Positions 23,845-60,066 of a stretch of DNA of 64,000 nucleotides are shown in pieces; the first letter of the stretch is position 1, and every line of letters begins with the position of its first letter. Source of the stretch: a virus; the IMG/VR virus record IMGVR_UViG_3300023184_000081, positions 16,242-80,241 of that record, one strand, 5' to 3'. The notes below the pieces were generated by a model, which saw only the letters and a list, made by a program, of their open reading frames with translations, was not told where the DNA came from and made no database searches. A program made the translations under genes and the position numbers.

Positions 23845-24852
23845 ATGATGACTCTTCAAATTGATCAAAGATATATCGGGCTAATATCAGCCAAACTCCC
23901 TCTATTCAAGAAAAAAACAGAACGACTGTATAATTGTCGTTGTGTCTTTTGCGGCGATTCTAAAAAGAATCGCCTTCGTTCTCGGGGATATCTTCTAGAG
24001 TATAAGGGCAGTTTTCTTTTTAAGTGCCACAACTGTAATGTTGCAGTCTCATTAGATAAACTAATTGAACATTTAGATCCTAGTCTACAGCGTGCGTATC
24101 GCTTAGAAAAGTTCAAGAGTAAACAAAGTAATGATTACACAATAATTCGAAATGATGTCATTAAGAATATTGTTATTCCTAGAGTCGATTTGAGTGAGTA
24201 TGGACTTATTCCTATTTCAGAATTGTCCTCACATCGTGCTCTTTCTTATTTAGAATCTAGAAAAATTCCAGTAAAATTTTATTCTGAATTGTATTATGTT
24301 CCTTCTATGAAAGAGCTAGAAAGATTCAGTCCGATGTATGAAGGAAAACTTTCTAAAGAAGAAAGAATTGCAATACCATATTATAATAAAGAAAATGAAC
24401 TTGTAGGTCTAAGTTGTAGATCTATGGGTAATTCTTCATTACGATATCTCACTGTTAGAAAAACAAATGATCCTCTTGTTTATGGAATTCAAAATGTTGA
24501 TCTGAATAAAACAGTATTCGTGATAGAAGGTCCATTCGATAGTATGTTCGTCGAAAACTCTATCGCGCCCGGCGGAACGGATTTCATCAAAGCAACAAAC
24601 ATGATACCAAAAGAAAATGCAGTCTTAGTTTTCGACAATCAGCCTAGAAATAAAGAAGTCATACAGCGTATGGAAAAAATGATTTCTTTTGGATATAGGA
24701 TGGTTATTTGGCCTAACACTTGGAACTTCAAAGACATCAATGAGGCAATTATTTCTGGCATGAATTCAAAAGACGTAGAAGACGTTCTAAATAGAAACTC
24801 CCACAAAGACTTATCTCTAAAATTAGCTTTACGAAATTGGAAAAAAATATGA
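23845..24852 (+). CDS. gp61: DNA primase (T4 gp61)
   Basis: Zn ribbon CRCVFCGDS...KCHNC; TOPRIM VIEGPFDSMF, FDNQPRN, KDINE. Confidence 0.96.
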   Translation: MMTLQIDQRYIGLISAKLPLFKKKTERLYNCRCVFCGDSKKNRLRSRGYLLEYKGSFLFKCHNCNVAVSLDKLIEHLDPSLQRAYRLEKFKSKQSNDYTIIRNDVIKNIVIPRVDLSEYGLIPISELSSHRALSYLESRKIPVKFYSELYYVPSMKELERFSPMYEGKLSKEERIAIPYYNKENELVGLSCRSMGNSSLRYLTVRKTNDPLVYGIQNVDLNKTVFVIEGPFDSMFVENSIAPGGTDFIKATNMIPKENAVLVFDNQPRNKEVIQRMEKMISFGYRMVIWPNTWNFKDINEAIISGMNSKDVEDVLNRNSHKDLSLKLALRNWKKI

Positions 24853-25514
24853 CAGTATCACTTATATCCTATTCACAACAACCAGAAGGATGTCGCTGCA
24901 GCGGAAGTTCGTTGTTAGATATCATAGCATTTTGTGCTCGTGTTTCAAATCCAAGTAATCAAAACAATACTGAAACGAATGAAAAACTTATTCGATATCT
25001 GATTAAGAATAATCATTGGTCTCCATTTGAGATGGTCACTGCTTGTTTAGAAATCACAACGACTCGTGATATTGCACGTCAGATTCTTCGTCATCGCTCT
25101 TTCAGCTTTCAAGAATTCAGTCAGCGTTATGCAGATCCAACAAAAGATTTGAATTTCGTGACACGTGAAGCACGATTACAAGATTCTAAGAACAGACAGA
25201 ATAGTATTGAGACTAATGATATTGCTCTAAATTTGAATTGGGAAACACAACAGAGTTATATTATGGACGCAGCGATTAAAACATATCGTTGGGCTATAGA
25301 CAAAGGAATTGCCAAGGAACAGGCTCGCGCTGTTTTGCCAGAAGGACTGATCGAATCGAAATTGTATATGACCGGATCTATACGTTCTTGGATTCACTAT
25401 ATACAACTACGAAGTGGTCCTGAAACTCAAAAAGAACATAGACAAATTGCTTTGGAATGTGCAAACGCCTTAGGACCAATTTTTCCGATGATCACTGAAT
25501 TTGTAAATCAATAA
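24849..25514 (+). CDS. thyX: Flavin-dependent thymidylate synthase
   Basis: CARVSNP, HWSPFEM, RQILRHRSFSFQEFSQRY, TQKEH. Confidence 0.97.
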   Translation: MTVSLISYSQQPEGCRCSGSSLLDIIAFCARVSNPSNQNNTETNEKLIRYLIKNNHWSPFEMVTACLEITTTRDIARQILRHRSFSFQEFSQRYADPTKDLNFVTREARLQDSKNRQNSIETNDIALNLNWETQQSYIMDAAIKTYRWAIDKGIAKEQARAVLPEGLIESKLYMTGSIRSWIHYIQLRSGPETQKEHRQIALECANALGPIFPMITEFVNQ

Positions 25515-34253: not shown

Positions 34254-34267
34254 ATTTGGAAAATAGT

Positions 34268-34342
34268 GTCCTGTTTGACTTCTGGTGAGGTCACCACCCT
34301 TTCACGGTGGCAAGAGGGGTTCGAATCCCCTACAGGACGCCA
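34268..34342 (+). tRNA. tRNA-Glu(TTC)
   Basis: Cloverleaf, anticodon loop CT-TTC-AC, encoded CCA. Confidence 0.92.
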
Positions 34343-34460
34343 TATTGAAGCGCATTATTGTCTATTTCGGCGTTCCTCCGATGGGTCAGAGTGTTTATAT
34401 AGACACCCTGATAAGGAAAACAGTATCCATTGACAAGATATTGGTAGTGCGTTTCAATAT
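34343..34460 (+). ncRNA. Inter-tRNA stem-closed RNA cassette 1
   Basis: (CCA)TATTGAAGCGCATT ... AGTGCGTTTCAATA(TGG) closing stem with nested inner helices. Confidence 0.6.
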
Positions 34461-34591
34461 GGTAACATGCAACAGCATGAGAGTAACGTGATACTGGCCA
34501 GTAAGCGTTCGGACATGCAATATCTCAAAGCGGAAAGTCATGAGTCCGTAGAGAAAAAGATTTCGGTTCGATTCCGAATTGCGTGTGACCA
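34461..34591 (+). ncRNA. tRNA-like stable RNA (T4 species-I-like)
   Basis: GGTAACA/TGTGACC terminal stem, T-arm TTCGG-TTCGATT-CCGAA, 3' CCA, no anticodon arm; 131 nt. Confidence 0.65.
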
Positions 34592-34597
34592 TATTAC

Positions 34598-34671
34598 GCG
34601 GGATTAGTTAAATGGTATAATTAGAGTTTTCCAAACTCCAGTCATCAGTTCGATTCTGATATTCCGCTCCA
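34598..34671 (+). tRNA. tRNA-Gly(TCC)
   Basis: Cloverleaf, loop TT-TCC-AA, CCA. Confidence 0.88.
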
Positions 34672-34679
34672 TTTGTTGT

Positions 34680-34753
34680 TGGGGATTAGTTAAATGGTAT
34701 AACCGCGGATTTTGATTCCGCTATCACAAGTTCGATTCTTGTATCCCCTGCCA
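34680..34753 (+). tRNA. tRNA-Gln(TTG)
   Basis: Cloverleaf, loop TT-TTG-AT, CCA. Confidence 0.9.
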
Positions 34754-34783
34754 GAAAATTTTATTTAACAGAAAGGAAATTGT

Positions 34784-34816
34784 ATGAAGCGAAAATCCAA
34801 AACACGCAAGACATAG
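34784..34816 (+). CDS. Minigene MKRKSKTRKT* inside the tRNA array
   Basis: Strong RBS AGAAAGGA; the G of the TAG stop is the first base of tRNA-Lys. Confidence 0.4.
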   Translation: MKRKSKTRKT

Positions 34817-34892
34817 GGAGTGTGGTGTAAAGGCTTGCACAACGGACTTTTAATCCGCTAAGAGTTAGGTTCGATTCCTACCACTCCCACCA
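34816..34892 (+). tRNA. tRNA-Lys(TTT)
   Basis: Cloverleaf, loop CT-TTT-AA, CCA. Confidence 0.9.
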
Positions 34893-34967
34893 TATGAAAA
34901 CACATTCTTTAAGGTCTTGGTCGTTACCAGCCTGGCAAAAACGACGACAGAGTGTGTTTCCATATAG
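34893..34967 (+). ncRNA. Inter-tRNA stem-closed RNA cassette 2
   Basis: (CCA)TATGAAAACACATTCT ... AGAGTGTGTTTCCATA; inner GTCGTT/AACGAC helix. Confidence 0.6.
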
Positions 34968-34975
34968 TAGAAAAA

Positions 34976-35067
34976 GGAGAGTAATGCAGCGGGGTTGGTC
35001 CTGCGACCAGCCTTGAAAACTGGGTTCTGAGAAATCGGATGGGGTTCGACTCCTCTGCTCTCCGCCA
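34976..35067 (+). tRNA. tRNA-Ser(TGA), 8/4 fold
   Basis: 8-bp acceptor GGAGAGTA/TGCTCTCC, 4-bp T-stem, long variable arm, loop CT-TGA-AA. Confidence 0.85.
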
Positions 35068-35073
35068 ATTTTT

Positions 35074-35149
35074 GACTCGTTAGCTCAATCGGAAGAGCAC
35101 ATGCCTGTCACGCATGAGGTAAGGGGATCGAAACCCCTACGGGTCGCCA
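35074..35149 (+). tRNA. tRNA-Asp(GTC)
   Basis: Cloverleaf, loop CT-GTC-AC, CCA. Confidence 0.9.
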
Positions 35150-35157
35150 AGAATTAC

Positions 35158-35251
35158 GGAGATTTGGCTGAGCATGGTTTAAGGCAGCGGATTGCTAATC
35201 CGTCGATCGAGGAAACTTGATCCATTGGTTCGAATCCAATAATCTCCGCCA
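35158..35251 (+). tRNA. tRNA-Ser(GCT)
   Basis: Long variable arm, loop TT-GCT-AA, CCA. Confidence 0.9.
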
Positions 35252-35265
35252 GAATTAAAAGTTTT

Positions 35266-35361
35266 GCTCCCCAGCACTCGGCGTGCGGCATGCCCTTATA
35301 AAGCGTGGAGACTGGTCAGATAGGCTGGAACGGGAAGGTTCAAAACCTTCGGGGAGTACCA
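35266..35361 (+). tRNA. Atypical tRNA, anticodon TAT (Ile?) with long variable region
   Basis: Acceptor GCTCCCC/GGGGAGT, tiny D-loop, loop CT-TAT-AA, ~25-nt extra arm, T-arm GAAGG-TTCAAAA-CCTTC, CCA. Confidence 0.65.
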
Positions 35362-35366
35362 AATTT

Positions 35367-35444
35367 GGTGAGGTGGCAGAGTGGTCAAATGCAAGAGCCT
35401 GCAAAACTCTAAAATCGTCGGTTCGAATCCGACCCTCACTTCCA
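35367..35444 (+). tRNA. tRNA-Cys(GCA)
   Basis: Loop CT-GCA-AA, U73, CCA. Confidence 0.9.
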
Positions 35445-35449
35445 AACTT

Positions 35450-35524
35450 GCCCTGTTAGTTCTAGTGGTAAAACGTCGGTTTTGTAATCCGAATTCGGGT
35501 GTTCGATTCACCCACGGGGCACCA
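35450..35524 (+). tRNA. tRNA-Thr(TGT)
   Basis: Loop TT-TGT-AA, CCA. Confidence 0.9.
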
Positions 35525-35531
35525 AAGAAAT

Positions 35532-35624
35532 GGAAGTATTGATGCTATGGCGTGTGCATCCCGAGACTGTAAATCTCGTCCCTCAGGGTAAACATTACTG
35601 GTTCGACTCCAGTTACTTCCACCA
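35532..35624 (+). tRNA. tRNA-Tyr(GTA)
   Basis: Loop CT-GTA-AA, long variable arm, CCA. Confidence 0.88.
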
Positions 35625-35631
35625 GATTTAT

Positions 35632-35706
35632 TCCTCGATAGCTCAGCGGTAGAGCAGTTGACTGTTAATCAATTGGTCCGTGGTTCGATCCCACGTCGAG
35701 GAGCCA
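35632..35706 (+). tRNA. tRNA-Asn(GTT)
   Basis: Canonical cloverleaf, loop CT-GTT-AA. Confidence 0.95.
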
Positions 35707-35715
35707 GTATCAAAA

Positions 35716-35791
35716 CGGTGTGTAGCTCAGCTGGTAGAGTGCGTGGTTTGGGACCATGAGGTCGGGAGTTCGAAACTCTCCACACCGACCA
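35716..35791 (+). tRNA. tRNA-Pro(TGG)
   Basis: Canonical cloverleaf, loop TT-TGG-GA. Confidence 0.93.
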
Positions 35792-35796
35792 GAATT

Positions 35797-35883
35797 GCAA
35801 GTGTGATGGAACAGGTATACATAAGAGACTTAAAATCTCTCGCTCGCAAGGGCATGCGGGTTCGATTCCCGCCACTTGCACCA
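35797..35883 (+). tRNA. tRNA-Leu(TAA)
   Basis: Loop CT-TAA-AA, long variable arm. Confidence 0.92.
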
Positions 35884-35899
35884 TAGTGATTCAGTATTT

Positions 35900-35975
35900 G
35901 GGGGTGTAGCTCAGTTGGGAGAGCGTATGCTTTGCAAGCATAATGTCGTCGGTTCGATCCCGTCCATCTCCACCA
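35900..35975 (+). tRNA. tRNA-Ala(TGC)
   Basis: G3:U70 pair, loop TT-TGC-AA. Confidence 0.93.
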
Positions 35976-35983
35976 GATTTAAT

Positions 35984-36057
35984 GCCTCGGTAGTTTAACG
36001 GTAAAACGCCATCCTTACACGGTGGATTCGGGAGTTCAACTCTCCAACGAGGTACCA
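35984..36057 (+). tRNA. tRNA-Val(TAC)
   Basis: Loop CT-TAC-AC; mismatches at the acceptor/T-stem junction. Confidence 0.82.
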
Positions 36058-36066
36058 AAAAGTTTT

Positions 36067-36143
36067 GCCCCGGTGACGGAATTGGCATACGTGTCGGTCT
36101 TAGAAGCCGAATTTTAGGAGTTCGAGTCTCCTCTGGGGCACCA
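36067..36143 (+). tRNA. tRNA-Leu(TAG) with short variable loop
   Basis: Loop CT-TAG-AA; only ~5 nt between the anticodon arm and the T-arm. Confidence 0.88.
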
Positions 36144-36305
36144 TAAGTAACTGCATTGGTAAGGAAAGACAATGTTCATAGACTCTCGAGGGAATATGTT
36201 CATACCTCCGCTGCAGCGGAGAAAAGGAGGATGGGCAAGCGATGATTTGGGGATTTTAGACATCTCCTCTAGCTGGATACCCCACCTGCCAGTGCAGTTT
36301 CTTAT
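36144..36305 (+). ncRNA. Inter-tRNA stem-closed RNA cassette 3
   Basis: (CCA)TAAGTAACTGCATTGGTA ... TGCCAGTGCAGTTTCTTA(TGG); inner hairpin CTCCGC-TGCA-GCGGAG. Confidence 0.6.
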
Positions 36306-36381
36306 GGTAATGTAGCATAGTGACTAATGCAGTTCCTTCATACGGAAAAGATCGTTGGTTTGAGTCCAACCATTACTACCA
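36306..36381 (+). tRNA. tRNA-Met/Ile2(CAT)
   Basis: Loop TT-CAT-AC, paired 1:72 (non-initiator), CCA. Confidence 0.85.
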
Positions 36382-36388
36382 AATTTTT

Positions 36389-36465
36389 GCGCCCATAGCT
36401 CAGTGGATTAGAGCCAACGGTTTCTACCCGTTAGGTCGGCAGTTCGAATCTGTCTGGGCGCACCA
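36389..36465 (+). tRNA. tRNA-Arg(TCT)
   Basis: Loop TT-TCT-AC, CCA. Confidence 0.92.
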
Positions 36466-36471
36466 GTATTT

Positions 36472-36547
36472 ACCATCTTAGCTCAGCGGTAGTAGCAGTG
36501 TGTTGATAACGCATTGGTCAGTGGTTCGATCCCACTAGATGGTACCA
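36472..36547 (+). tRNA. tRNA-Ile(GAT)
   Basis: Loop TT-GAT-AA, CCA. Confidence 0.92.
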
Positions 36548-36552
36548 AATTT

Positions 36553-36626
36553 CTCGGTGTAGTATAATGGCATTACGGCAGCCTCCAAATCTGCTTATGG
36601 GAGTTCGATTCTCTCCGCCGGGGCCA
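36553..36626 (+). tRNA. tRNA-Trp(CCA)
   Basis: Loop CT-CCA-AA, CCA. Confidence 0.88.
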
Positions 36627-36628
36627 AT

Positions 36629-36704
36629 ATCTCTATAACTCAGCGGACAGAGTTCTTCGGTCCTAACGAAGCGGTCGCAAGTTCGAATCTTGCTAGGGAT
36701 GCCA
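36629..36704 (+). tRNA. tRNA-Arg(CCT)
   Basis: Stem CTTCG/CGAAG, loop GT-CCT-AA. Confidence 0.85.
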
Positions 36705-36709
36705 GTTTT

Positions 36710-36787
36710 AGATGGAGAGCTAGTCTGGTGATTCAGCGCGTGCCTGAAGAGCATGAGAACTCAGTTCGATTCTGAGTCCATCTACCA
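36710..36787 (+). tRNA. tRNA-Phe(GAA)
   Basis: Loop CT-GAA-GA, CCA. Confidence 0.87.
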
Positions 36788-36796
36788 AAGAACAAT

Positions 36797-36870
36797 GGTG
36801 TTGTTAATGTAATGGTTGCATAACTGTCTGTGAAACAGTTAGAGAGGGTTCGATTCCCCACTTCACCCCA
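36797..36870 (+). tRNA. tRNA-His(GTG), imperfect stems
   Basis: Loop CT-GTG-AA, G-1:C73; two U:U mismatches in the acceptor and a short T-stem. Confidence 0.72.
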
Positions 36871-36878
36871 ATAAATAT

Positions 36879-36955
36879 CGGTCCTTAACTCAATTGGATA
36901 GAGTGCCAGTCTTCGAAACTGGAGGTTGGGAGTTCGAGTCTCTCAGGATCGGCCA
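36879..36955 (+). tRNA. tRNA-Arg(TCG)
   Basis: Loop CT-TCG-AA, CCA. Confidence 0.9.
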
Positions 36956-41014: not shown

Positions 41015-41584
41015 ATGCCTTCAGTATTTTTAATCGCAGATACACATTTCGGACATAAAGGAATGTGTACGTTTACGCGAAATGATGGAATTACAAAACT
41101 TAGACCATTTGATACGCCTGAAGAAATGGACGAATTCATGGTCAAAGCATGGAATGATAAAGTGAAGCCTACTGATAAAGTATATCATCTTGGCGATGTC
41201 GTCATCAATAAAAAGTCTTTGTCTATTATGGATAGACTCAATGGCGATAAAGTTCTGATTCGAGGCAACCATGATATCTTTCATGACACGGAATACAGAA
41301 AATACTTTCGTGAACTTCGTGCGTATCATGTTATGAACGGAATGATTCTGAGTCATATTCCTATTCATGATGAAAGTCTTGGTCGATTCGGAACTAACAT
41401 TCATGGACATCTACACGCAAATCGCGTAAAGAAGAATGGCGAAATTGATGTTAGATATCATTGTGTATCAGCCGAGCATGTAGATTTTACTCCGATTCTT
41501 TTTGAAGACGTTATCAAACGCATTGTAGAAGAAGGTGGACATGTCGGTTTCAAAAATGGGAATTATCAAAGCCCTGCTAGTTAA
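41015..41584 (+). CDS. Calcineurin-like metallophosphoesterase
   Basis: ADTHFGH, YHLGDV, RGNHD, LSHIP, HGHLH. Confidence 0.92.
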   Translation: MPSVFLIADTHFGHKGMCTFTRNDGITKLRPFDTPEEMDEFMVKAWNDKVKPTDKVYHLGDVVINKKSLSIMDRLNGDKVLIRGNHDIFHDTEYRKYFRELRAYHVMNGMILSHIPIHDESLGRFGTNIHGHLHANRVKKNGEIDVRYHCVSAEHVDFTPILFEDVIKRIVEEGGHVGFKNGNYQSPAS

Positions 41585-41641
41585 ATGGCATAACGATCAA
41601 TTTGTAGTGATCAGTAGGCAGTTCGATTCTGTCACAGGGTA
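41571..41641 (+). pseudogene. Degenerate tRNA-Thr(TGT)-like sequence
   Basis: D- and T-arms intact (GGCAG-TTCGATT-CTGTC), 8-nt anticodon loop, no CCA. Confidence 0.6.
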
Positions 41642-41802
41642 TCTTAAAACCGGAGAGCAATAATGAGCATATGGGATGAATCGCACGAGAAAAAGCTGAT
41701 GGAGAAACGAATCGCGAATTCCACTAGAAAACGTTCTTACTTTAAAATCTGCTGTATCTTGTACTATGTGTTGATTGGTGTGATTGGTTTATTATTTGGG
41801 GA

Positions 41803-48308: not shown

Positions 48309-48563
48309 ATGACAAGAAACGAGATCTATGATTTGGCACGCAGTAATATTATTTCAGTAACGTTCACCAAGAAAGACGGCGAAACACGAACGATGAAATG
48401 CAGTCTCAAAGATGAATATATAGTTAGTGAAGAGAAAAAAGAATCGACTTCGGTTCGTAAACCTAATGACGAAGTTCTTGCTGTTTGGGATCTAGATAAG
48501 AGCGCATGGCGTTCGTTTCGTATTGAATCTGTGAAAGGTGTGGAAATATGGGAACAAAATTAA
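48309..48563 (+). CDS. WYL_2/SH3-like beta-barrel protein
   Basis: VTFTKKDGETRTMKCSL...VWDLDKSAWRSFR. Confidence 0.82.
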   Translation: MTRNEIYDLARSNIISVTFTKKDGETRTMKCSLKDEYIVSEEKKESTSVRKPNDEVLAVWDLDKSAWRSFRIESVKGVEIWEQN

Positions 48564-49555
48564 ATATTACTGGTATTATGGAAGAAGCTGAGAGTATCGA
48601 ACCTGCAGCAGATGGAACGTATACTAATCTAGGATCCGCTGGTGGAACTGAGATGATGATGGCTGGTCTTCGTGAGAGAGTATCATCAGAACTCCTAGAT
48701 CAATTCAATTTCATCTGCTCTCGATATCGTCCAGAAAATCTTAGCAAAGATAAAAAGAATATCCTCTGGCTGCACGACACTTGGGACGACCCCGAGAGTG
48801 AACATCTCTCTAAGAAAGAAAATCGTAAGAAATTTTCTAAACTTGTTTTCGTATCACACTATCAGCAAGCAACTTTCAACATGGGTCGTAATGTAGATTT
48901 TGCAGACGGTATTGTTATGCAGAATGCTATTGTTCCGATTCCAGAATTTGAAAAGACTAAGAAACATATCAATCTAATCTATCATACAACTCCACATCGC
49001 GGTCTGGAACTTCTGATTCCTGTATTCGAAAAGCTGTGTGAAGCGATGCCAGATGTCGATTTGAATCTAGATGTGTATTCTTCGTTCAACATCTACGGTT
49101 GGCCAGCACGTGACGAACCATACAAAGAATTGTTCGCACGTTGCACAAAACATCCGAACATAAATTATCACGGATATCAGCCAAACGATGTAGTTCGTAA
49201 AGCGTTGCAAGCCGCTCATATCTATGCATATCCGAATATCTGGCCGGAAACATCTTGCATTTCAGTGATTGAGGCGATGTCTGCCGGATGTTCTGTAGTT
49301 TGCCCAAATTTCGGAGCATTACCAGAAACCTGTGCAAATTTCGCAACAATGTATCCATTCATCGAAAACAATAATGCGCACGCAAATATGTTTGCCAGAG
49401 TTCTGATGATGGCTATCAGAAATCACTGGGATGAGAATAATCAGAATAAACTCAAATTTCAAAAACTGTATTTTGATAATTTCTATAATTGGGATGTGCG
49501 AGCATCGCAATGGGAATCACTTTTGAAGGGTATTTTGAGCCAAAATAAACCTTGA
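48548..49555 (+). CDS. GT-B (GT4-like) glycosyltransferase
   Basis: GGTE, TTPHRGL, YPNIWPETSCISVIEAMSAGC (ExxxxxxxE). Confidence 0.9.
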   Translation: MGTKLNITGIMEEAESIEPAADGTYTNLGSAGGTEMMMAGLRERVSSELLDQFNFICSRYRPENLSKDKKNILWLHDTWDDPESEHLSKKENRKKFSKLVFVSHYQQATFNMGRNVDFADGIVMQNAIVPIPEFEKTKKHINLIYHTTPHRGLELLIPVFEKLCEAMPDVDLNLDVYSSFNIYGWPARDEPYKELFARCTKHPNINYHGYQPNDVVRKALQAAHIYAYPNIWPETSCISVIEAMSAGCSVVCPNFGALPETCANFATMYPFIENNNAHANMFARVLMMAIRNHWDENNQNKLKFQKLYFDNFYNWDVRASQWESLLKGILSQNKP

Positions 49556-51644: not shown

Positions 51645-51719
51645 CGCGGGGTGGGAAAGGAGTATTCCGCTTGGCTCATAACCAAGAGATCGTTGGTGCG
51701 AATCCAACCCCCGCAACCA
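51645..51719 (+). tRNA. tRNA-fMet(CAT) under a late promoter
   Basis: C1:A72 mismatch, loop CT-CAT-AA, CCA; TATAAATA at 51634-51641. Confidence 0.85.
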
Positions 51720-51741: not shown

Positions 51742-52161
51742 ATGATAAAAAGTCTTGCTGAAATGATTGATGAAATCGAGAAACAAAAAAATGCCGCATC
51801 TCAAACAAAACTTCTTAAGAAGTATGCCTCAGCTGCAATGAAAGCTGTTGTTGGCTATGCGATGGATCCTGGTGTTAAGTTCCTTCTTCCACCGTCCGAT
51901 CCGCCGTTTCGTCCAATGCCAGATGGATCAGATGCGCAAGGTCGTCTTATTGCAGATCACAGGAAATTTATTTACTTTGTAGATTCTCCAGATGGCAGAG
52001 GCATTAGCGCACTTAAACGCGAACAGATGTTCATTCAGATGTTAGAAACTCTAGATGTTCGTGATGCACAACTGTTGCTTCGGATTAAAAATAAAAAACT
52101 CACGATTAGAATGGACGCGGTAAAAGCTGCATTCCCGTCTCTAACTGCAAAGTGGAAATGA
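51742..52161 (+). CDS. Conserved T4-like hypothetical protein (DUF6433-like)
   Basis: FLLPPSDPPF...KREQMFIQMLETL...DAQLL. Confidence 0.8.
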   Translation: MIKSLAEMIDEIEKQKNAASQTKLLKKYASAAMKAVVGYAMDPGVKFLLPPSDPPFRPMPDGSDAQGRLIADHRKFIYFVDSPDGRGISALKREQMFIQMLETLDVRDAQLLLRIKNKKLTIRMDAVKAAFPSLTAKWK

Positions 52162-52757
52162 GCAATAATCCGGCTTTTATCATTGGTAATGGTGAAAGCC
52201 GTAGGAATTTTGATCTAAATGATATAAAGGGTGTTGCTCCTATTTACGGATGTAATGCTCTTTATAGAGATTTCTCTCCAGACTGGCTAGTAGCAGTCGA
52301 TGAGGGAGTCATTGATGAAATAAATTCTTCCAATTTTCCTAAAGAATCTACACTATTCCCTAGATCAAAAGCTGAAGAATACGAACCAGCAGATATGCAT
52401 CCAGGCAGAAACAGATATCCTAGAAACAATTCTGGTATGTATGCCATGCAGCGAGCAATAGAAAAAGATCATAATGTTTTACTGTGCCTAGGATTTGATT
52501 TTCTGATCAATGACAGCTATCTTTCTTGCACAAATTTGTTTGCTGGGACTAAAAATTACGGCGCAGAAACTCATGCGAATTTTGAAGATAATGCTGGACG
52601 GATTCATTATCTTGAATGGTTTGCAAGAAAGAATAAAGATGTTGTTTTTATTTTCGTTCTTGAAGATCTATTCCCAAAAGTTCCAATTGGCGCAAAAAAT
52701 ATTTTCACAATACCATACAGAACTTTAAAATTGAACATACATAGAGACAGTCAATAG
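52158..52757 (+). CDS. DUF115/MptE-like (sialyltransferase-like Rossmann) protein
   Basis: FIIGNGESR, YGCNALYR, AVD, NSG, CLGFDF. Confidence 0.7.
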   Translation: MSNNPAFIIGNGESRRNFDLNDIKGVAPIYGCNALYRDFSPDWLVAVDEGVIDEINSSNFPKESTLFPRSKAEEYEPADMHPGRNRYPRNNSGMYAMQRAIEKDHNVLLCLGFDFLINDSYLSCTNLFAGTKNYGAETHANFEDNAGRIHYLEWFARKNKDVVFIFVLEDLFPKVPIGAKNIFTIPYRTLKLNIHRDSQ

Positions 52758-52772
52758 CATTGGAATTATATT

Positions 52773-54134
52773 ATGACGAAGCAGATAGTATTAAGTGAAC
52801 AGATTGACTGTGAGCATTTGTTAGGTAAATTTCTAGATCATGACGCATACAATTATATTGTTAATGAAGATTGTGACGTGTATAAGCCATTGGGTCCTGG
52901 CGAAAGTCCTCACGAAAATAATTGTCTTTTGAAGTTTCGTAAGAACGTATTTCCTAAGAGCATTACAGACCCTGCATATATTGGATTGCGGGAGGGTGCT
53001 AGTCAATCTGATAACCGTGGTCTTGCTGCTGGAACTCATCGCGATGAATTTCAGATAATGCCAACCGAAACTGGACATGGTAAACGTCGATGGGTAACCA
53101 AACTAGAAAAAGCTATCATCAATTATTTTTTGGCTGGGTCACCAGTATCTGCGTCAGGTGGAGATCAGGTACCTGATATTTTGCGTGAGACATCTAATGA
53201 TCCATTAGAAGGACGAGGAGCCACTGGAGGCGGCAATATTAAAGGTGGATCTATTTGGATTGTAAAGAAAACCACAGAGTTTGATTTTACAGAATGGATG
53301 AATTCCACAAAAGAATTGTCTAGAGAAGATAGAAAGAAGTCTGCTATTGAAGTTCGCAAGTTGATATCAGATACATCTTATGGTAATTCTGTCTACTCTG
53401 GAACGGCTGGATATTTTGATCGTTATCCGCGTATTCCTTTTTGCAGAGAAACTGCTTGGAGTGCCGCAAATGCAGATCTATTCCAAAAAGGATATCCTCT
53501 ATTCGAAGCAGCATCTGATGTATTCAAAGACAATTTTCCGATCAGATGGAATGGACAGAATGACTCTGTTAAGAAACTGAAAGATCCTGGCTGGCGTATT
53601 GGTAATTCAGTTTACACGACCATAACGATCAATAAAGATTTCAGAACAGCTTGTCATAGAGATGCTGGAGATCTATGCGAAACAGAACGAATTAATCTTC
53701 CCGCAGGATTTAGTAATCTCACAGTATTGAGCGATGGAAAGAACTTTGATGGTATGTATCTATGCATGCCAGAGTATAAAGTTTGCGTAGATGTGAAACC
53801 GGGCGATCTATTGCTTATGGATGCTCATCAGATTCATGGCAACGTTCCTCTGATCTCATCAGATGAAGGATTTGAAAGAATTTCTGTTGTTATGTATTTC
53901 AGATCATCTATGTTAGATTGTTCTTCTGTTGAACAAGAAAATCTTCGTAGAAAATTTGTTTATGCAAGAAAAGATAATAACAGTCATGATCAATGGCACG
54001 AAGGTTGGAATGGAGTGTCAGCTGGAATGTGGGAAACTAAAGAATGGTCCGACTATCTAAGCAATAATGGATTTCCAGAAGAAGCGTCTAAAGTATCTAA
54101 GAGTGAAAATATAAGCGTTTTGGACTTCCTATGA
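52773..54134 (+). CDS. TET/JBP-family 2OG-Fe(II) dioxygenase
   Basis: GYFDRYPRIPFCR, YTTITIN.DFRTACHRDAGD (HxD), HQIHGN, ERISVVMYFR. Confidence 0.88.
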   Translation: MTKQIVLSEQIDCEHLLGKFLDHDAYNYIVNEDCDVYKPLGPGESPHENNCLLKFRKNVFPKSITDPAYIGLREGASQSDNRGLAAGTHRDEFQIMPTETGHGKRRWVTKLEKAIINYFLAGSPVSASGGDQVPDILRETSNDPLEGRGATGGGNIKGGSIWIVKKTTEFDFTEWMNSTKELSREDRKKSAIEVRKLISDTSYGNSVYSGTAGYFDRYPRIPFCRETAWSAANADLFQKGYPLFEAASDVFKDNFPIRWNGQNDSVKKLKDPGWRIGNSVYTTITINKDFRTACHRDAGDLCETERINLPAGFSNLTVLSDGKNFDGMYLCMPEYKVCVDVKPGDLLLMDAHQIHGNVPLISSDEGFERISVVMYFRSSMLDCSSVEQENLRRKFVYARKDNNSHDQWHEGWNGVSAGMWETKEWSDYLSNNGFPEEASKVSKSENISVLDFL

Positions 54135-54916
54135 AAATCTATGCTACAGCTACCATATGTGGAAAATGGAAGCTTCCATTCTATATTCCATTGGTTGATG
54201 AAGATAAGACATCAAAGCATGAACGATCATACATGCATTATGTTTCTCAGCATTCCGATCTTGTAGCTGCAAAATGTAATGCTACAGAATGGCTGCTTGG
54301 TGGGATTCTACCTATAGATTGCAAGCTAGTTGTTAGAGAATATTTTGGTGGTGCTGGAATAATGTCCACCATAATTCGAGGCATGTTTGAAGTGAACTCA
54401 CATTATATTGGAGAGCGTGATAAACAGTGCGTGATTCAATTAGAGAAAGCATTTCCACAAGCTATTTGTGAAGAAGCTGATGCTTTAGAATCCATGACTA
54501 GAAGTGAATATGCAGATATAGATATGTTGGATTTTCCATCGTCTAGTATTATTCACACAAAGCGCGCAGGTCAAAAATGGACAAATGGATTTGAAAAAGT
54601 CCTATCACGAAAACCAAATGCGATTATATGGACTGATACATCTGTAACATATCCTATATCAATTCATGGTTCTAGATACGAAACAGAAATTGGTGGACCG
54701 ATTACAACTCAGAGTGAATATCTGATGCGCTATTCGGAGTGGCTCTACAATACACATGGATATTCTATTTGCAGAGCAGCATATCGCGCGCGCAATGCGG
54801 TCTATCTTCTAGCTCAGCCAGGAGCATTTTACTTAGAAGAAAAACATTTTCCTATCATTGGAAATGAGAATGGATTTGTTATGGATAATGTTAAATCTAT
54901 ATTGGATTTTGTATGA
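54131..54916 (+). CDS. Unassigned class I SAM-binding (Rossmann) protein
   Basis: VVREYFGGAG (motif I), IGERD (II), EADA (III), DIDMLDFP (IV). Confidence 0.65.
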   Translation: MKIYATATICGKWKLPFYIPLVDEDKTSKHERSYMHYVSQHSDLVAAKCNATEWLLGGILPIDCKLVVREYFGGAGIMSTIIRGMFEVNSHYIGERDKQCVIQLEKAFPQAICEEADALESMTRSEYADIDMLDFPSSSIIHTKRAGQKWTNGFEKVLSRKPNAIIWTDTSVTYPISIHGSRYETEIGGPITTQSEYLMRYSEWLYNTHGYSICRAAYRARNAVYLLAQPGAFYLEEKHFPIIGNENGFVMDNVKSILDFV

Positions 54917-56064
54917 TCAATGTAGACTCAACGCATCCAATAGGAAATTGGTGTAATCTAAATAAAGTGGCTGAGGTTACAGATCTAAAGAAGGGAATGG
55001 ACTTTAGACTACCAAAATATCGTAGAGAAGTCTTCATGCGATTCTATGAGTTTCATCTACAGAATAGAAGTCATCCTGGTGGCGTATACTTTATGTTTCC
55101 ATGGCTGCAGAAGAAATATAATCTGGATAATGAACAGATGTTGTGGATGACATTCATCAATGGTATGAGTCAGCATATAGTTACAACATGGATGCTTTTT
55201 GAAAAGTTTCCAACATTCAGATCTGATCCAGATCTTATGCAGAAATATATCAGAGACAACTGGGCTCAGCTTGGTTGGGATATGGATAGACGTTATGTTA
55301 AGAATAAATTCGGAAAAGCTCTAGAATGCTATCAGAAGTTGATAGGTAAAAAAACTCAAATCGAATATTGGAATGGTCTGTGCAACACAACTGATGAGAA
55401 ACAGAACTTCAGAAATTGCTGGACAACTGTAATGACTGAATTTCATTACTTCGGTAGATTGTCATCATTCAGTTATCTAGAATATCAGAGGATCGTTGGA
55501 CTGAATATAGATTGTGATCGTCTGTTTCTAGAAGATATGAGTGGAAGTAAATCGCATAGAAATGGTCTAGCTGTAGTTCTTGGTCGTGATGATTTAGACT
55601 GGCATGATAAACTCAATCCGGATTTTCAGGGATATACACCAGATCATATATCTTGGCTGCAGTCACAAGGAGAAGCCCTTCTGATAGAAGCACAAGAAAG
55701 ATTCAAAGATAAAGAATACCTCAAGGATGTTTCCTATTTTACATTAGAGTCTACGCTTTGTTGCTACAAGAGCTGGCATAGAAAGAATAGACGATATGCT
55801 AATGTGTATATGGATATGTTCCATGATCGTATCAAAAAAGCTGAGGCTGCATCACAAGGCAATTATGATTTTTCATTATTTTGGGATGCACGAAAAGAGA
55901 ATCTTCCTGAGCATCTATTATTAGAATGTGTAGAATCTGATCCAGGATTATGTCCAGAAAAACAAAATCATTATCGCGATACTGGACAGGTCATTATGAT
56001 GGATAAGATGTGGTCGTGTTTTGAAAATAACTTTAATAAATCTGGTCTGAGGGAGTTTCTGTGA
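54913..56064 (+). CDS. Amino acid:DNA transferase (alpha-glutamyl/putrescinyl thymine pyrophosphorylase, clade 2-like)
   Basis: DMDRRYVK, YFGRLSSFSYLEY, GSKSHRNGL, LESTLCCYK. Confidence 0.83.
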   Translation: MINVDSTHPIGNWCNLNKVAEVTDLKKGMDFRLPKYRREVFMRFYEFHLQNRSHPGGVYFMFPWLQKKYNLDNEQMLWMTFINGMSQHIVTTWMLFEKFPTFRSDPDLMQKYIRDNWAQLGWDMDRRYVKNKFGKALECYQKLIGKKTQIEYWNGLCNTTDEKQNFRNCWTTVMTEFHYFGRLSSFSYLEYQRIVGLNIDCDRLFLEDMSGSKSHRNGLAVVLGRDDLDWHDKLNPDFQGYTPDHISWLQSQGEALLIEAQERFKDKEYLKDVSYFTLESTLCCYKSWHRKNRRYANVYMDMFHDRIKKAEAASQGNYDFSLFWDARKENLPEHLLLECVESDPGLCPEKQNHYRDTGQVIMMDKMWSCFENNFNKSGLREFL

Positions 56065-56606
56065 AAAAAATTATTGCTCTTGGTGGCGAACCTGCAACTG
56101 GTAAGACAACATTGATGTGGAGAATTATTGATAGCGCAACAGATTGGCAGAAGATTGAACCAAAGAAAACTCTTTCAGCAATTCGTTCAGAATCTCTCGA
56201 TCTAACCATACTGGGTAAGTATGATCGAGGCCTCGAATTCGCAGGAACAGATCGTCTATCAATGAGTGTTCAACCTGCAGCTACAGAGTTCATCAAAGAA
56301 GCCACAGGAAATATTCTATTTGAGGGAGATAGGTTATTCAATAGAAAATTCATCGACGCTATCATATCGTGCAATTGTCTATTCTCTCTAATCTATATTG
56401 AAGCGAGTCGCAATGAGCTTCAAAATCGACATATCGATCGAAAAGACACACAGACAGAAACGTTCCTTAAGAGTAGGCAAACTAAGTATAGCAATATCGT
56501 AAGGAGTTTAGATCTTATGGATATCATTCATACATTCAAGAATGATAATATGGATCAGCAGACAATTATTTACGATTTTATAAGAGCAAATATATTTAAT
56601 AAATAG
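56061..56606 (+). CDS. P-loop nucleotide kinase (putative 5-hmdU DNA kinase)
   Basis: GGEPATGKTT, LGKY...FAGTDRLSMSVQP, LFEGDRL. Confidence 0.85.
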   Translation: MKKIIALGGEPATGKTTLMWRIIDSATDWQKIEPKKTLSAIRSESLDLTILGKYDRGLEFAGTDRLSMSVQPAATEFIKEATGNILFEGDRLFNRKFIDAIISCNCLFSLIYIEASRNELQNRHIDRKDTQTETFLKSRQTKYSNIVRSLDLMDIIHTFKNDNMDQQTIIYDFIRANIFNK

Positions 56607-56610
56607 CATT

Positions 56611-56808
56611 ATGAAAACAGCTAAACTTCCAATTTATTCTTTAGATACAGTTCTTGTAGAAGGTTGGTTCATACGCTGCTCTATAATGAAGGGCAACATA
56701 CTTGTTGTTATGTTGAATTCAATAACTGAAGAATGTCGGATTGGCTTTTTTAAAACTGAAAAAAAAGCCAATCGTTTTGTGAATGATATAATATATGCTC
56801 TCGGATAA
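56611..56808 (+). CDS. Hypothetical protein
   Basis: Contiguous ORF. Confidence 0.6.
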   Translation: MKTAKLPIYSLDTVLVEGWFIRCSIMKGNILVVMLNSITEECRIGFFKTEKKANRFVNDIIYALG

Positions 56809-57211
56809 AATAAAATCTCTGCCCCATTCTGGAAGAACGCTACAAGATCATCTAAATGGAACTGCTGATATACTACGTTATTGGCTCTGTTCTGATGACG
56901 TTGTCAATGCAGGTCTGTATCACTCAGTCTACGGAACTTCAAGCTATAAGAATATAGCTACAACAAACAGAGATGAAGTTATCGCTCTGATCGGCGTATA
57001 TGCAGAATCTCTTGTGTATACATTCTGTAACACGAATCACAATAGAATGCTTCATTTTATTGAAAATCGAAATAAAGAATTGATTTTAGTAGAATGTGCT
57101 AATCTCATGGAACAGAAAAGCAGAAATTTTCAGATATTAGAAAAGGCAGTAGACTATGTTCCAAAATACATCGGAGACGATATAGGTTTCTACATAATGG
57201 ATAATCACTGA
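56795..57211 (+). CDS. DUF6817-like HD-domain protein
   Basis: HSGRTLQDHL.GT...AGLYHSVYGT...IG..AE.LVY.FC...AN.MEQ. Confidence 0.8.
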   Translation: MLSDKIKSLPHSGRTLQDHLNGTADILRYWLCSDDVVNAGLYHSVYGTSSYKNIATTNRDEVIALIGVYAESLVYTFCNTNHNRMLHFIENRNKELILVECANLMEQKSRNFQILEKAVDYVPKYIGDDIGFYIMDNH

Positions 57212-57221
57212 GGAATAGATC

Positions 57222-57398
57222 ATGACTACAGAAATAGATAAAATGATACAGAAATTGGAACTTGCAATGCATCATAATGCATATCTAACATTTGATGAGA
57301 TGGAAGAAATGCATACGTTTCTTCATAATCTCAAAGAAAATTCTCCTCGTCCTGCTATATTTTCGGAACAAGAACAATCTGAACTGTTTACAAAATGA
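57222..57398 (+). CDS. Small hypothetical protein (58 aa)
   Basis: RBS GAGG, ATGA overlap with the next gene. Confidence 0.55.
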   Translation: MTTEIDKMIQKLELAMHHNAYLTFDEMEEMHTFLHNLKENSPRPAIFSEQEQSELFTK

Positions 57399-58090
57399 GC
57401 AGAATCCATGTGAGAGGACAGATGGGTGTTCAGATTCTTCAAGTGGCAGTGGGACTGTCGAAGGAGTCTGATAAAGATACAGATGATTGTGTTATCTGTA
57501 TCAATAACGAAAAGACAGAAGTTCTTTCGTCCGAGAAATTATCTAATCAATTGCATCATGTGTTCGACGCTAAATGCAGAGTCATAGATATAGACTCCAA
57601 AGATAAGACTCCATATTGGGTCGAGGGTGCAGCAACTTCTATCTTTGAGAACAGAGATAATATATTCAAATATCTTGTTCCACGATTCGATATGATAGAA
57701 AAATTATTTCCTATTCAGCTTCCTGCAGTTCATATCAGAGGGAAAGATAAGAATGTAGCGTCTATCGAATCGTGTAGAAAACTTTTAGCCATGGCTGGAT
57801 CGGACGCTGTAATTTATACAGACGATAAAGAGAAAGCCAAAGAAGTATCACCAGAACATAAAGTAAGTCAAAACGAATTGGACATTGATGACTGGATTGA
57901 TATGTATAATTCCGCGATTATATACGCTGCGCCTTCTGCATTTATCATGAGCATGCTTTTGTTCAATCCTCATAAGACGATGGTCTTTATGAATGAAGAA
58001 ATGTGCGACGGGGAATATCCTGCATCGGCCGGAGATTTTCTATTCCTCAGAGAAGCTATGAAATTTTGTCCGAATGTGTCTATTGTCTAA
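57395..58090 (+). CDS. Fucosyltransferase-like (GT11/GT23) protein
   Basis: RGQMGVQILQ (cf. GxLGNQ), AVHIRGKD, IYTDD, PSAF. Confidence 0.65.
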   Translation: MSRIHVRGQMGVQILQVAVGLSKESDKDTDDCVICINNEKTEVLSSEKLSNQLHHVFDAKCRVIDIDSKDKTPYWVEGAATSIFENRDNIFKYLVPRFDMIEKLFPIQLPAVHIRGKDKNVASIESCRKLLAMAGSDAVIYTDDKEKAKEVSPEHKVSQNELDIDDWIDMYNSAIIYAAPSAFIMSMLLFNPHKTMVFMNEEMCDGEYPASAGDFLFLREAMKFCPNVSIV

Positions 58091-58091
58091 T

Positions 58092-58931
58092 ATGAAAATA
58101 AAAGATCTTGAGAGTATATTCAAAAGCTCTGCTAAATCTGCAGATAAGCTACAGGGATTCGTTCCTGATATGCATATCGATCGGGCGCAAAAGGCGCATG
58201 AAGCTCAACTGCAACGTAGAGAAAAACACGGACACAAAACTGAATATTCCAAAAAGTTCGATGAAGAAGGAATTGTAGTCATTCCGAATTTCATGAGCGA
58301 TATGACTGGATTTGTAGAGGAGATTGAAAAGTTTCCTATCGCTGAGAATAAGAATGAACATAATTTACTTTTCGGTGAACCAAGACCTTGGATTCAATCT
58401 CGAGATGATGATGGTTCTCGTCTATACAATATCGTCATGGACTGTCATGCTCTACACACTCTAGACCCACAATTCAAACAAAATACATTCGTTCAGCGTC
58501 TACAGAATAGCCCAGATAATAATGATGTGCAGAAAATTATGCACATGGATACGTTCTTTCCGACTGTTAAATTTTGGTTCTTTCCTCAAGATGTAACAAT
58601 AGATGATGGTCCATTCTGTTATGTGCCAAAATCAAATATTCTTACAGATAAAAGAAAAGAGTGGATGCGAAAACAGTGGGAAGATATTATTGACGGTAAG
58701 GTAGATCCACGAAGAACATATGGTCATGCAGAGGGGTCTCTACGTGTATTCGATGAAGAATTAATTGAGATGGGATTCGATCCAGAATGTAAAGTATATC
58801 CAGTCAAAGCGAATACATTAGTGATCGCTAACACGTTTGGATTCCACGCTCGCGGAGAGGTATCTAATACAGTGATCCGTCAAGCAATTCATGGGTCGAT
58901 CAGATTGTCGAAACCGTTCGAAATTTTCTGA
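58092..58931 (+). CDS. PhyH-family 2OG-Fe(II) dioxygenase
   Basis: FDEEGIVVIPNF, HMDTF (HxD), DGPFCYVPKS, GFHARG. Confidence 0.85.
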   Translation: MKIKDLESIFKSSAKSADKLQGFVPDMHIDRAQKAHEAQLQRREKHGHKTEYSKKFDEEGIVVIPNFMSDMTGFVEEIEKFPIAENKNEHNLLFGEPRPWIQSRDDDGSRLYNIVMDCHALHTLDPQFKQNTFVQRLQNSPDNNDVQKIMHMDTFFPTVKFWFFPQDVTIDDGPFCYVPKSNILTDKRKEWMRKQWEDIIDGKVDPRRTYGHAEGSLRVFDEELIEMGFDPECKVYPVKANTLVIANTFGFHARGEVSNTVIRQAIHGSIRLSKPFEIF

Positions 58932-59197
58932 TGTATGATTTTTTCATTACAGACTATAGAAGCCACAAATTACGGTTCATATTTGAATCTATTGCTTGGT
59001 TGATTTCTATCGGTTGTTGCATCGCAATGGCAGTAACAGTTCCGAATCCTCCGCTACTGATTCTCTATCCAATATGGATGACAGGCTGCGTAATCACAGC
59101 TGGATGCTCTTATTCTCGCGGATCGTTTTGGCTTTTCGCTAATTATATTATTCTAACACTGATAGATTCTGTTGGACTTATAAGGATGATGCTATGA
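58931..59197 (+). CDS. Small multi-TM membrane protein
   Basis: Three hydrophobic segments, TVPNPP. Confidence 0.7.
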   Translation: MYDFFITDYRSHKLRFIFESIAWLISIGCCIAMAVTVPNPPLLILYPIWMTGCVITAGCSYSRGSFWLFANYIILTLIDSVGLIRMML

Positions 59198-60066
59198 GTT
59201 TATTCAATTCTCGTTATCCGATCGTATGCGCTCCAATGAATCAGGTGAGTGACGCAAGATTAGCTGTGGCATGTAATAAAGCTGGAATCATTCCGAGTCT
59301 AGTAACAAATCATCAAATAGAAAAACAACTAAAAGAATATCGTGATTTTTGTCCGAATGGAGATATAATTTTATCTAGCAATTTGATGAATGCGACGATT
59401 ATCAATGGATTCGAAGGACTCATTGCGCTCTTAAAAGATTATAGAGTATCACATATACAGTTGTTGAAAATCTTAAACGATACTGAATTTAAAATGTTGG
59501 AAAGAATTCTAGATAACAATATTAAGGTAATATTTAAATCTCTAGAACCAATGCAATTAGCAGAGATGCAACCTTACTATGATGCAATAGATTTAAAAAG
59601 CCCAGACGCTGCATCCAGAGTGATACATACAGGTCAAACAACGATGGAAAGATTCTTAGAACAGAAAGCCACAAATCCGGATATTCCCATTATCGTGACT
59701 GGAGGGATATCCACATCTGCAGATATTAAAATGTATCTAGACGCAGGTGCAGAAGCAGTGGGATTAGGAACAATGTTCGCTCTCTCTAAAGAGTCTGCAA
59801 TACATCCTTATAAGAAAATGGAGATGATAAGAAAATCTTTCAGTGATGTTACATCTGTTAGAACTAACTTGAATTTTGGAAAGAATCGTATGAACGCGAT
59901 CGTATTTTCAGAGACGCCAGATACAGATGGAAATAATACAGAAGGATTAATACTGGGAAGAGATACAACGGATCGTGGATTACTCTTTGCAGGAAAAGCT
60001 CTAGATAACATCACTGCAATAGAATCCGTTCAAACAATTGTCGATAGACTCACGAAGGAGTTATAA
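59194..60066 (+). CDS. Nitronate monooxygenase/FabK-like FMN TIM barrel
   Basis: YPIVCAPMNQVSD, IPIIVTGGI, GAEAVGLGTMF..SKES. Confidence 0.82.
   Translation: MSLFNSRYPIVCAPMNQVSDARLAVACNKAGIIPSLVTNHQIEKQLKEYRDFCPNGDIILSSNLMNATIINGFEGLIALLKDYRVSHIQLLKILNDTEFKMLERILDNNIKVIFKSLEPMQLAEMQPYYDAIDLKSPDAASRVIHTGQTTMERFLEQKATNPDIPIIVTGGISTSADIKMYLDAGAEAVGLGTMFALSKESAIHPYKKMEMIRKSFSDVTSVRTNLNFGKNRMNAIVFSETPDTDGNNTEGLILGRDTTDRGLLFAGKALDNITAIESVQTIVDRLTKEL

Follow-up and report, generated by a model that had tools for sequence, protein, structure and literature searches.

Post-replicative hypermodification of thymine (T) in phage DNA, by a TET/JBP-type dioxygenase with a kinase and a transferase at its side, was reportedly predicted by Iyer et al. 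in 2013. Lee et al. (2021; PMC8989533) inferred that TET is the source of 5-hydroxymethyluracil (5hmU) in TET-containing metavirome contigs, and thymine dioxygenases (T-dioxygenases) of phage Clades C1 and C2 have now been demonstrated experimentally (O'Toole et al., PNAS 2026; PMC13229309), the ParB-dependent subclass of Clade C1 being 'consistently linked' with P-loop kinases as well as amino-acid:DNA transferases (AADTs). With predictions in 2013 and 2021 and a demonstration in 2025/2026 (PMC13229309), this kind of system is already known. Here we analyse a candidate for it in a 64,000-nucleotide (nt) stretch of viral DNA, referred to below as the window, which comprises bases 16242-80241 of the 80,241-bp IMG/VR virus contig IMGVR_UViG_3300023184_000081. 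Four overlapping plus-strand genes at window positions 52773-56606, the cassette, encode a TET/JBP-family dioxygenase (ORF1), a protein with an S-adenosylmethionine (SAM)-binding fold (ORF2), an AADT (ORF3) and a P-loop kinase (ORF4). We estimate the probability at about 0.75 that this cassette hypermodifies thymidine after replication, by conversion of T to 5hmU, phosphorylation, amine transfer and tailoring. What is new at this locus is the accessory ORF2 family, a ParB-less dioxygenase with a long insertion, and the co-residence of the cassette with a Cmo-type cytosine modification system.

The ParB-dependent T-dioxygenase clusters, such as 5mYOX176/ParB176 (PMC13229309), likewise place a TET/JBP enzyme beside a P-loop kinase and an AADT, without an adjacent C5 cytosine methyltransferase (C5-MT). 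Genes 1-4 of Mycobacterium phage Apex (Coopervirus), which lie beside the terminase, encode ParB, a TET-like oxidoreductase, an AADT and a Ploopntkinase3 protein. The Mycobacterium Coopervirus phages are the closest cultured relatives for the AADT, with 40% identity between ORF3 and Apex gene 3, and Apex gene 4 is a homologue of ORF4 in the same Pfam family (PF18751 match 1.6e-72). Unlike in the ParB-dependent clusters, ParB is absent from our contig, the TET is ~130 amino acids (aa) longer, and an extra gene with a SAM fold stands between TET and AADT.

The pre-replicative pathways of phages M6, ViI, PaMx11, SP10 and PhiW-14 (Lee et al. 2018; 2021, PMC8989533) follow the same logic of a 5hmU-DNA kinase together with an aGPT-Pplase of clade 2, or AADT, with essential Cys and Glu residues, and the ORF2 family is also found in a cluster of the pre-replicative type (locus L067). 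In pathways of the M6/ViI type, however, 5hmU is made by a hydroxymethylase acting on deoxyuridine monophosphate (dUMP) and is incorporated by the polymerase, whereas here we find ThyX, no ThyA-like gene on the contig, and a predicted DNA dioxygenase. Tailoring in those pathways involves a pyridoxal phosphate-dependent decarboxylase, a radical SAM enzyme, a flavin lyase and an acetyltransferase, as against a SAM-methyltransferase fold here. The C5-MT/TET clusters of Burke et al. (PNAS 2021; PMC8256090) likewise use a dioxygenase of the TET/JBP fold post-replicatively to prime further modification, but their TET lies beside a C5-MT and feeds glycosyltransferases, whereas ORF1 has no adjacent C5-MT and has partners of the thymidine type. 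In trypanosomatids JBP1/2 (base J) also hydroxylate thymine in DNA, and the 5hmU is then derivatised; it is glucosylated there, whereas phosphorylation and amine transfer are predicted here, and the sequence relationship is presumably distant. The first-pass annotation of this DNA had described TET-kinase-transferase neighbourhoods as predicted computationally; by now they are anchored by experiment as well (PMC13229309).

The junctions between the four genes read, in order, ATGA, ATGA and GTGA, and these letters together with the ORF coordinates bear out the translational coupling that had been proposed. The motifs quoted at that time are all present in the translations: HRDAGD, HGN and RISVVMYFR in ORF1, FGRLSSFSYLE, SHRNGL and LESTLC in ORF3, and GGEPATGKT, GTDRLSM and EGDRL in ORF4. 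In the pathway we propose, ORF1 would hydroxylate the C5-methyl group of thymine in the phage DNA to give 5hmU, without a ParB activator, as its family, its context and its published relatives suggest. The Ploopntkinase3 kinase would then phosphorylate the 5-hydroxymethyl group, a step to which the protein families and the literature point. Cys283 of the AADT would attack C6, the phosphate would be expelled, and a free amino acid or amine would be joined, through its amine or hydroxyl, to the exocyclic methylene, as suggested by the conserved Glu/Cys active site. Lastly, in what is the weakest link, ORF2 would alter the group so attached, with N- or O-methylation as the simplest case, or would act on a pathway intermediate. 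These steps would yield a hypermodified thymidine, by which the DNA would be protected from nucleases of the host.

ORF1 matches Pfam Tet_JBP (PF12851) with E 2.1e-15 and 56.8 bits, compared with a curated cut-off of 34.9, and reaches 59.2 bits for the same profile in a six-frame search. Its AlphaFold2 model, built on 29 homologues (predicted local distance difference test, pLDDT, of 79), has TET2 (Z 17.1, root-mean-square deviation 3.4, 249 aligned) and NgTET1 (Z 16.6) as the nearest solved TETs, with further matches to CMD1 (Z 16.0) and CcTet (Z 15.6), while AlkB and FTO follow at Z of 11 or less; Foldseek concurs with a TET fold (E 1.4e-8). The iron triad and the arginine that binds 2-oxoglutarate (2OG), namely H295, D297, H355 and R369, align to the AHRD, H and RIS motifs of TET2 and are invariant across the 29 homologues. 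Profile score, invariant triad and fold thus uphold the assignment of ORF1 to the TET/JBP family, and we predict that it is a DNA thymine dioxygenase converting T to 5hmU.

ORF1 belongs to a family of ~450-aa proteins that, at 90% identity, forms over 1,600 clusters. When ORF1 is aligned with homologues of 308-332 aa, an internal insertion of ~100 aa at residues ~100-200 and a C-terminal tail are seen, which together make up its surplus over the short phage TETs. ORF1 has its active-site motifs, HxDxGD and R-I-S-x-V-x-Y-[FY]-R, in common with the short, ParB-linked TETs of the cassette, and likewise two further residues, D300 and R377, which a profile alignment with TET2 places opposite N1387 and H1904, respectively. 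In TET2 the latter two contact 5-methylcytosine (5mC), and the parallel in base recognition is to be read only as a lead, not as evidence. Full-length homologues of the long dioxygenase occur in the GenBank phages Stenotrophomonas DLP6, Caulobacter Cr30 and Synechococcus S-CBWM1 (loci L002-L004), DLP6 and Cr30 being T4-like, and in all three they carry the label 'SNF2 DNA repair protein', a misannotation. In Cr30 a Ploopntkinase3-like gene, labelled 'terminase small subunit' in RefSeq, lies 7 kb from the dioxygenase homologue.

For ORF3, the match to Pfam ADDT (PF18724) has E 4.8e-18 and 66.2 bits (cut-off 26.2) and covers 215 of the 232 profile positions. The residues E279 and C283, within LESTLC, are kept in nearly all of 33 aligned AADT homologues, a set that includes a ViI gp247-like protein besides Apex gene 3; score and conserved Glu/Cys pair together substantiate the transferase call. 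Neither M6 gp51 nor ViI gp247 can do without the corresponding active-site Cys and Glu, the donors known for AADTs are glycine, serine, putrescine or glutamate, and the combined AADT and kinase chemistry has been demonstrated for M6, ViI and PaMx11 (PMC8989533). ORF4 matches Pfam Ploopntkinase3 (PF18751) with E 3.3e-10 and 40.2 bits (cut-off 27), and its Walker A sequence is GGEPATGKT, so that the earlier identification as a P-loop kinase stands.

The cassette recurs as a unit. Among 66 IMG/VR loci from a scan with the ORF2 alignment, the order TET, ORF2-like gene, AADT and kinase is kept in ~58, at 37-92% identity, and the exceptions are mostly due to contig ends. We also clustered all ORFs of the 30 longer loci: the four cassette genes are found in 28, 30, 30 and 27 of these, and no flanking cluster in more than 10. 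Because only its four genes recur while the flanks differ, the cassette appears to be a mobile unit. At the nucleotide level the operon had no match among 50,697 GenBank phages.

Two complete genomes carry the cassette, one T4-like, of 173 kb and with a long TET (G001), the other of 50 kb, with terminal repeats and a short TET (G004), and neither a C5-MT nor a ThyA-like gene is found in either of them. The genome G001 encodes ThyX, as does the source contig, where a PF02511 match confirms the earlier view that the phage makes ordinary deoxythymidine monophosphate through thyX. The remark that the window shows no hydroxymethylase can be extended to the entire 80-kb contig, in which no ThyA-like gene was detected. 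Conversely, the contigs of loci L066 and L067 have an ORF2-like gene and an AADT but no TET, and this pair lies within a classical pre-replicative 5hmU cluster with a ThyA-like gene, HMUDK_hel, two P-loop ORFs (one of which falls just below the cut-off of the 5-hmdU DNA kinase family, PF18748), a YfbR-like HD deoxynucleoside monophosphate nucleotidase and a family A polymerase. The L067 cluster (L067:6542-13666, on the 91-kb IMG/VR contig G003) also holds a Pyr_excise-like glycosylase.

By its gene content the L067 cluster appears to be the pre-replicative version of the same hypermodification, and since the L066/L067 pair sits with a ThyA-like gene and not with TET, the ORF2-AADT pair would work on 5hmU whatever its source. 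This supports TET as a probable alternative source of 5hmU, interchangeable in related clusters with dUMP hydroxymethylase. That a dioxygenase supplies 5hmU in place of the hydroxymethylase, as the first-pass annotation had suggested, thus gains support from the complete genomes that have neither C5-MT nor ThyA-like gene, from the TET-less contigs, where a ThyA-like gene occurs with 5-hmdU DNA kinases beside ORF2-like gene and AADT, from the coupling of the contig's own C5-MT to a CmoA-like gene (PMC12783734), and from the T-dioxygenases shown experimentally in phages (PMC13229309).

The contig does hold a C5-MT, one of Cmo type. It is complete (motifs FAGGGGS, SPPCSAFS and AENV), lies outside the window, and is the only one on the contig, and its presence there is a reason to consider that the dioxygenase acts instead on 5mC or 5-carboxymethylcytosine, with kinase and transferase elaborating 5-hydroxymethylcytosine in a cytosine pathway. 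Among phage TETs, those in clades A and B do oxidise 5mC, and C5-MT/TET contigs bearing kinases have been described (PMC8256090). However, the C5-MT is 65 kb away from the cassette and is ATGA-coupled to a CmoA-like gene, which aligns with CmoA end to end (5.7e-32, below the equivalog cut-off), and an asparagine (Asn)-synthetase-like gene is nearby. The CmoA/CmoX/CmoY system of Synechococcus phage S-B43, by which 5-carboxymethylcytosine is made and then joined to glycine (PMC12783734), has this arrangement, and the three genes on our contig match that system. Because the C5-MT is coupled to a gene of the carboxymethylcytosine system, it is unlikely to supply 5mC to the TET. In addition, both complete cassette genomes do without a C5-MT, ORF2-like and AADT genes also occur in the cluster with a dUMP hydroxymethylase and 5-hmdU kinase, and every characterised AADT acts on 5hmU-derived DNA (PMC8989533). 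We consider a cytosine pathway quite improbable. Of the earlier proposal that the TET/JBP enzyme acts on T or 5mC in DNA and that the product is then elaborated, the thymine part is therefore supported by these comparisons while the 5mC part is unlikely. With Cmo-type genes and a thymine cassette on the same contig, the phage probably hypermodifies both pyrimidines, cytosine by CmoA/CmoX/CmoY and thymine by the cassette.

The cassette exists in two forms with respect to ParB. Specifically, the TETs fall into a short class of 308-332 aa, with ParB, and a long class of 424-468 aa, without: a ~200-aa ParB_N ORF lies directly upstream in 9/9 short-TET loci, as against 0/19 long-TET loci (loci with a ParB-like ORF upstream of TET include L030, L032, L042, L044, L047, L049, L051 and L071). 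ParB_N (PF02195) is found neither in the 80-kb contig nor in the complete relative G001. A fused N-terminal ParB domain of ~200 aa was considered for ORF1 and rejected, since alignments to the TET fold begin at residue 1, the surplus is an internal insertion, and the contig has no ParB_N signal. In 5mYOX176, dependence on ParB was abolished when its variable insertion was exchanged for that of an enzyme independent of ParB (PMC13229309); because of this result we infer by analogy that the insertion of the long form would replace the ParB activator.

The remaining protein, ORF2, has no match in Pfam, PHROG or NCBIfam, its family alignment found nothing in a sequence-profile search of the PDB, and a search of the ESM atlas returned only generic class I methyltransferases, all below 0.9. 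The AlphaFold2 model (pLDDT 89.4, predicted template modelling score 0.87) has a Rossmann-like, seven-stranded class I SAM-methyltransferase fold, with 440 chains at Z of at least 8 and methyltransferases in every one listed, which bears out the SAM-binding fold that had been recognised from the sequence. The nearest structure is Trm1 (Z 14.8, 210 residues aligned), followed by RlmKL and Trm5a (Z 13.7), an RsmD-like protein (Z 13.1) and TYW2 (Z 13.0), all of them modifiers of nucleic-acid bases. In the family alignment E70, Y71, G74 and G76 of motif I (E70-Y-x-x-G74-x-G76) are invariant, after strand 2 an acidic residue, E or D, occupies position 95 in every sequence, and D97 does not vary, nor does D134-x-P136 at the position of motif IV, which reads D-F-P here. 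An exhaustive search with a hidden Markov model gave 420 clusters at 50% identity. Among 34 distant relatives compared with Pfam there were two weak RrnaAD and two weak TRM5-TYW2 matches, and one distant member (P0266) carries a fused Ploopntkinase3 domain. No member was found among the 50,697 GenBank phage records, and the family is known solely from uncultured phages. Two other identities were rejected: a divergent C5-MT, since PC and ENV motifs are missing, the motif IV position reads D-F-P and the structural neighbours are amino- and RNA-methyltransferases; and kinship with the FkbM methyltransferase that Pelagibacter phage HTVC112P encodes beside its TET gene (hhalign probability 0.2%).

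What ORF2 does is the least firm part of our proposal. Given that Apex has ParB, TET, AADT and kinase but no ORF2-like gene, ORF2 appears to be an add-on to a known core, and it may be a tailoring enzyme of the thymine adduct. Its substrate would then be 5hmU in DNA that bears an amino acid (or a phosphate), and the product, for example, an N-methylated or aminocarboxypropylated adduct; that ORF2 is a new tailoring enzyme, whose product is a base modification so far undescribed chemically, we suggest tentatively, at somewhat short of even odds. Alternatively, the thymine steps could hold while ORF2 is not an adduct-tailoring methyltransferase: it could methylate other bases (N6-A/N4-C-type), act on 5hmU itself, transfer an aminocarboxypropyl group as TYW2 does, or be a non-catalytic partner. 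The best structural neighbours, nucleic-acid base methyltransferases and TYW2, fit such roles, as does the absence of an ORF2-like gene from the cultured phage Apex, and the D-F-P at the motif IV position presumably resembles the (D/N/S)PP(Y/F) motifs of amino-methyltransferases. Nevertheless, ORF2 is wedged between TET and AADT in most of the loci, it accompanies the AADT even where a hydroxymethylase replaces TET, and one member of the family is fused to the kinase. This gene order, TET-less pairing and fusion tie ORF2 to the 5hmU pathway and not to an independent methylation, and we think it unlikely that ORF2 has a role other than adduct tailoring.

Several points weigh against the proposed thymidine pathway as a whole. 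We know of no Ploopntkinase3 member that has been proven to phosphorylate 5hmU in DNA, and the pathway as predicted for this enzyme and its sub-clade is built on comparison. The methyl-transfer chemistry of ORF2 may be doubtful, with TYW2, an aminocarboxypropyl transferase, among the neighbours of the model. The contig is 43% complete by CheckV, so that a hydroxymethylase could be encoded elsewhere in the genome. For the phage T-dioxygenases 5mYOX97 and 5mYOX176, 5mC too is a substrate in vitro (PMC13229309), a point that also counts for the cytosine pathway discussed above. Finally, E. coli screens found several Clade C1 enzymes without ParB to be inactive, some of them on T and 5mC alike (PMC8256090, PMC13229309), as would be expected if the cassette stopped at 5hmU or were degenerate here, with a long ParB-less TET that is inactive or with dead downstream enzymes. 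However, no catalytic motif is broken and all of them are kept without change even among divergent homologues, the reading frames are uninterrupted and coupled in translation, and the sheer number of 90%-identity clusters in the long TET family also speaks against decay; such a truncated or degenerate cassette seems to us highly improbable.

The source virus is a marine T4-like phage, and its contig carries a T4-like replication set of gp43-type polymerase, gp41-type helicase, UvsX, ribonucleotide reductase, ligase and RNase H, the polymerase being ~50% identical to those of Synechococcus myoviruses. Table 1 lists the cassette and the other features discussed here. Upstream of the TET gene, the 201-aa ORF possibly belongs to the operon; it is kept beside the cassette only in close relatives (L009-L016) and has no Pfam match, and a language-model atlas hit of 0.91, to a cluster with PF01973 in 34% of its members, is a weak lead to an MptE-like (pyrophosphokinase or sugar-transferase) fold. 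The genes that follow the kinase are kept with the cassette only in its nearest relative, L010. The thymidine pathway of PaMx11 employs a flavoenzyme, and by analogy a link between the flavin mononucleotide (FMN) enzyme in this group and the thymidine pathway is conceivable. The glycosyltransferase, the cytidylyltransferase-domain protein and the capsule-synthesis-like gene of Table 1 point to a capacity of the phage for handling sugars.

Table 1. Features of the cassette and of the surrounding contig (window positions unless marked as contig).
Feature	Position	Strand	Remarks
ORF1, TET/JBP-family Fe(II)/2OG dioxygenase (5mYOX), long form	52773..54134	+	453 aa; PF12851
ORF2, class I SAM-methyltransferase-fold protein without family	54131..54916	+	261 aa; AlphaFold2 fold
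ORF3, AADT (formerly aGPT-Pplase clade 2)	54913..56064	+	383 aa; PF18724
ORF4, Ploopntkinase3 P-loop kinase, predicted 5hmU-DNA kinase	56061..56606	+	181 aa; PF18751
ThyX flavin-dependent thymidylate synthase	~24837..25514	+	PF02511 E 1.9e-46, contig 41162-41728
201-aa ORF, possible operon part	52152..52757	+	15 nt upstream of TET gene
C5-MT/CmoA-like gene pair	contig G000:C1:3930-5933		~10-12 kb before window start; loci L006/L007
Asn-synthetase-like gene	5632-6450		between gp43 and uvsX
DUF6817 (HD-like) gene, 231-aa orphan, then two enzyme-like genes: weak PhyH-like 2OG oxygenase, NMO/IMPDH-like FMN TIM-barrel enzyme	56795-60066	+	3' of kinase
GT1-family glycosyltransferase	48548-49555	+	3 kb upstream of cassette
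1191-aa protein with N-terminal cytidylyltransferase domain	14510-18085	+	
Capsule-synthesis-like gene	32302-33306	+	
tRNA gene array	34267-36955		~23 tRNA genes on contig
Odd ARAGORN calls with undetermined anticodons	34267 and 41571 (41571-41641)		
Separate tRNA-Met	51645-51719		just upstream of operon region

Post-replicative hypermodification of thymine in phages has only recently been demonstrated. A compact, widely conserved four-gene unit such as this cassette suits heterologous reconstitution, and the occurrence within it of both long-insert and ParB-linked dioxygenases amounts to a natural experiment on ParB dependence. The unannotated ORF2 family would, by its chemistry, add to the enzymes known to work on DNA bases within the polymer, and DNA-modifying enzymes of a comparable sort are already useful as sequencing and labelling tools. 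If the two modification systems on this contig act as proposed, a phage with both carboxymethylated cytosine and hypermodified thymine would be a model for stacked anti-restriction modifications in marine T4-like phages.

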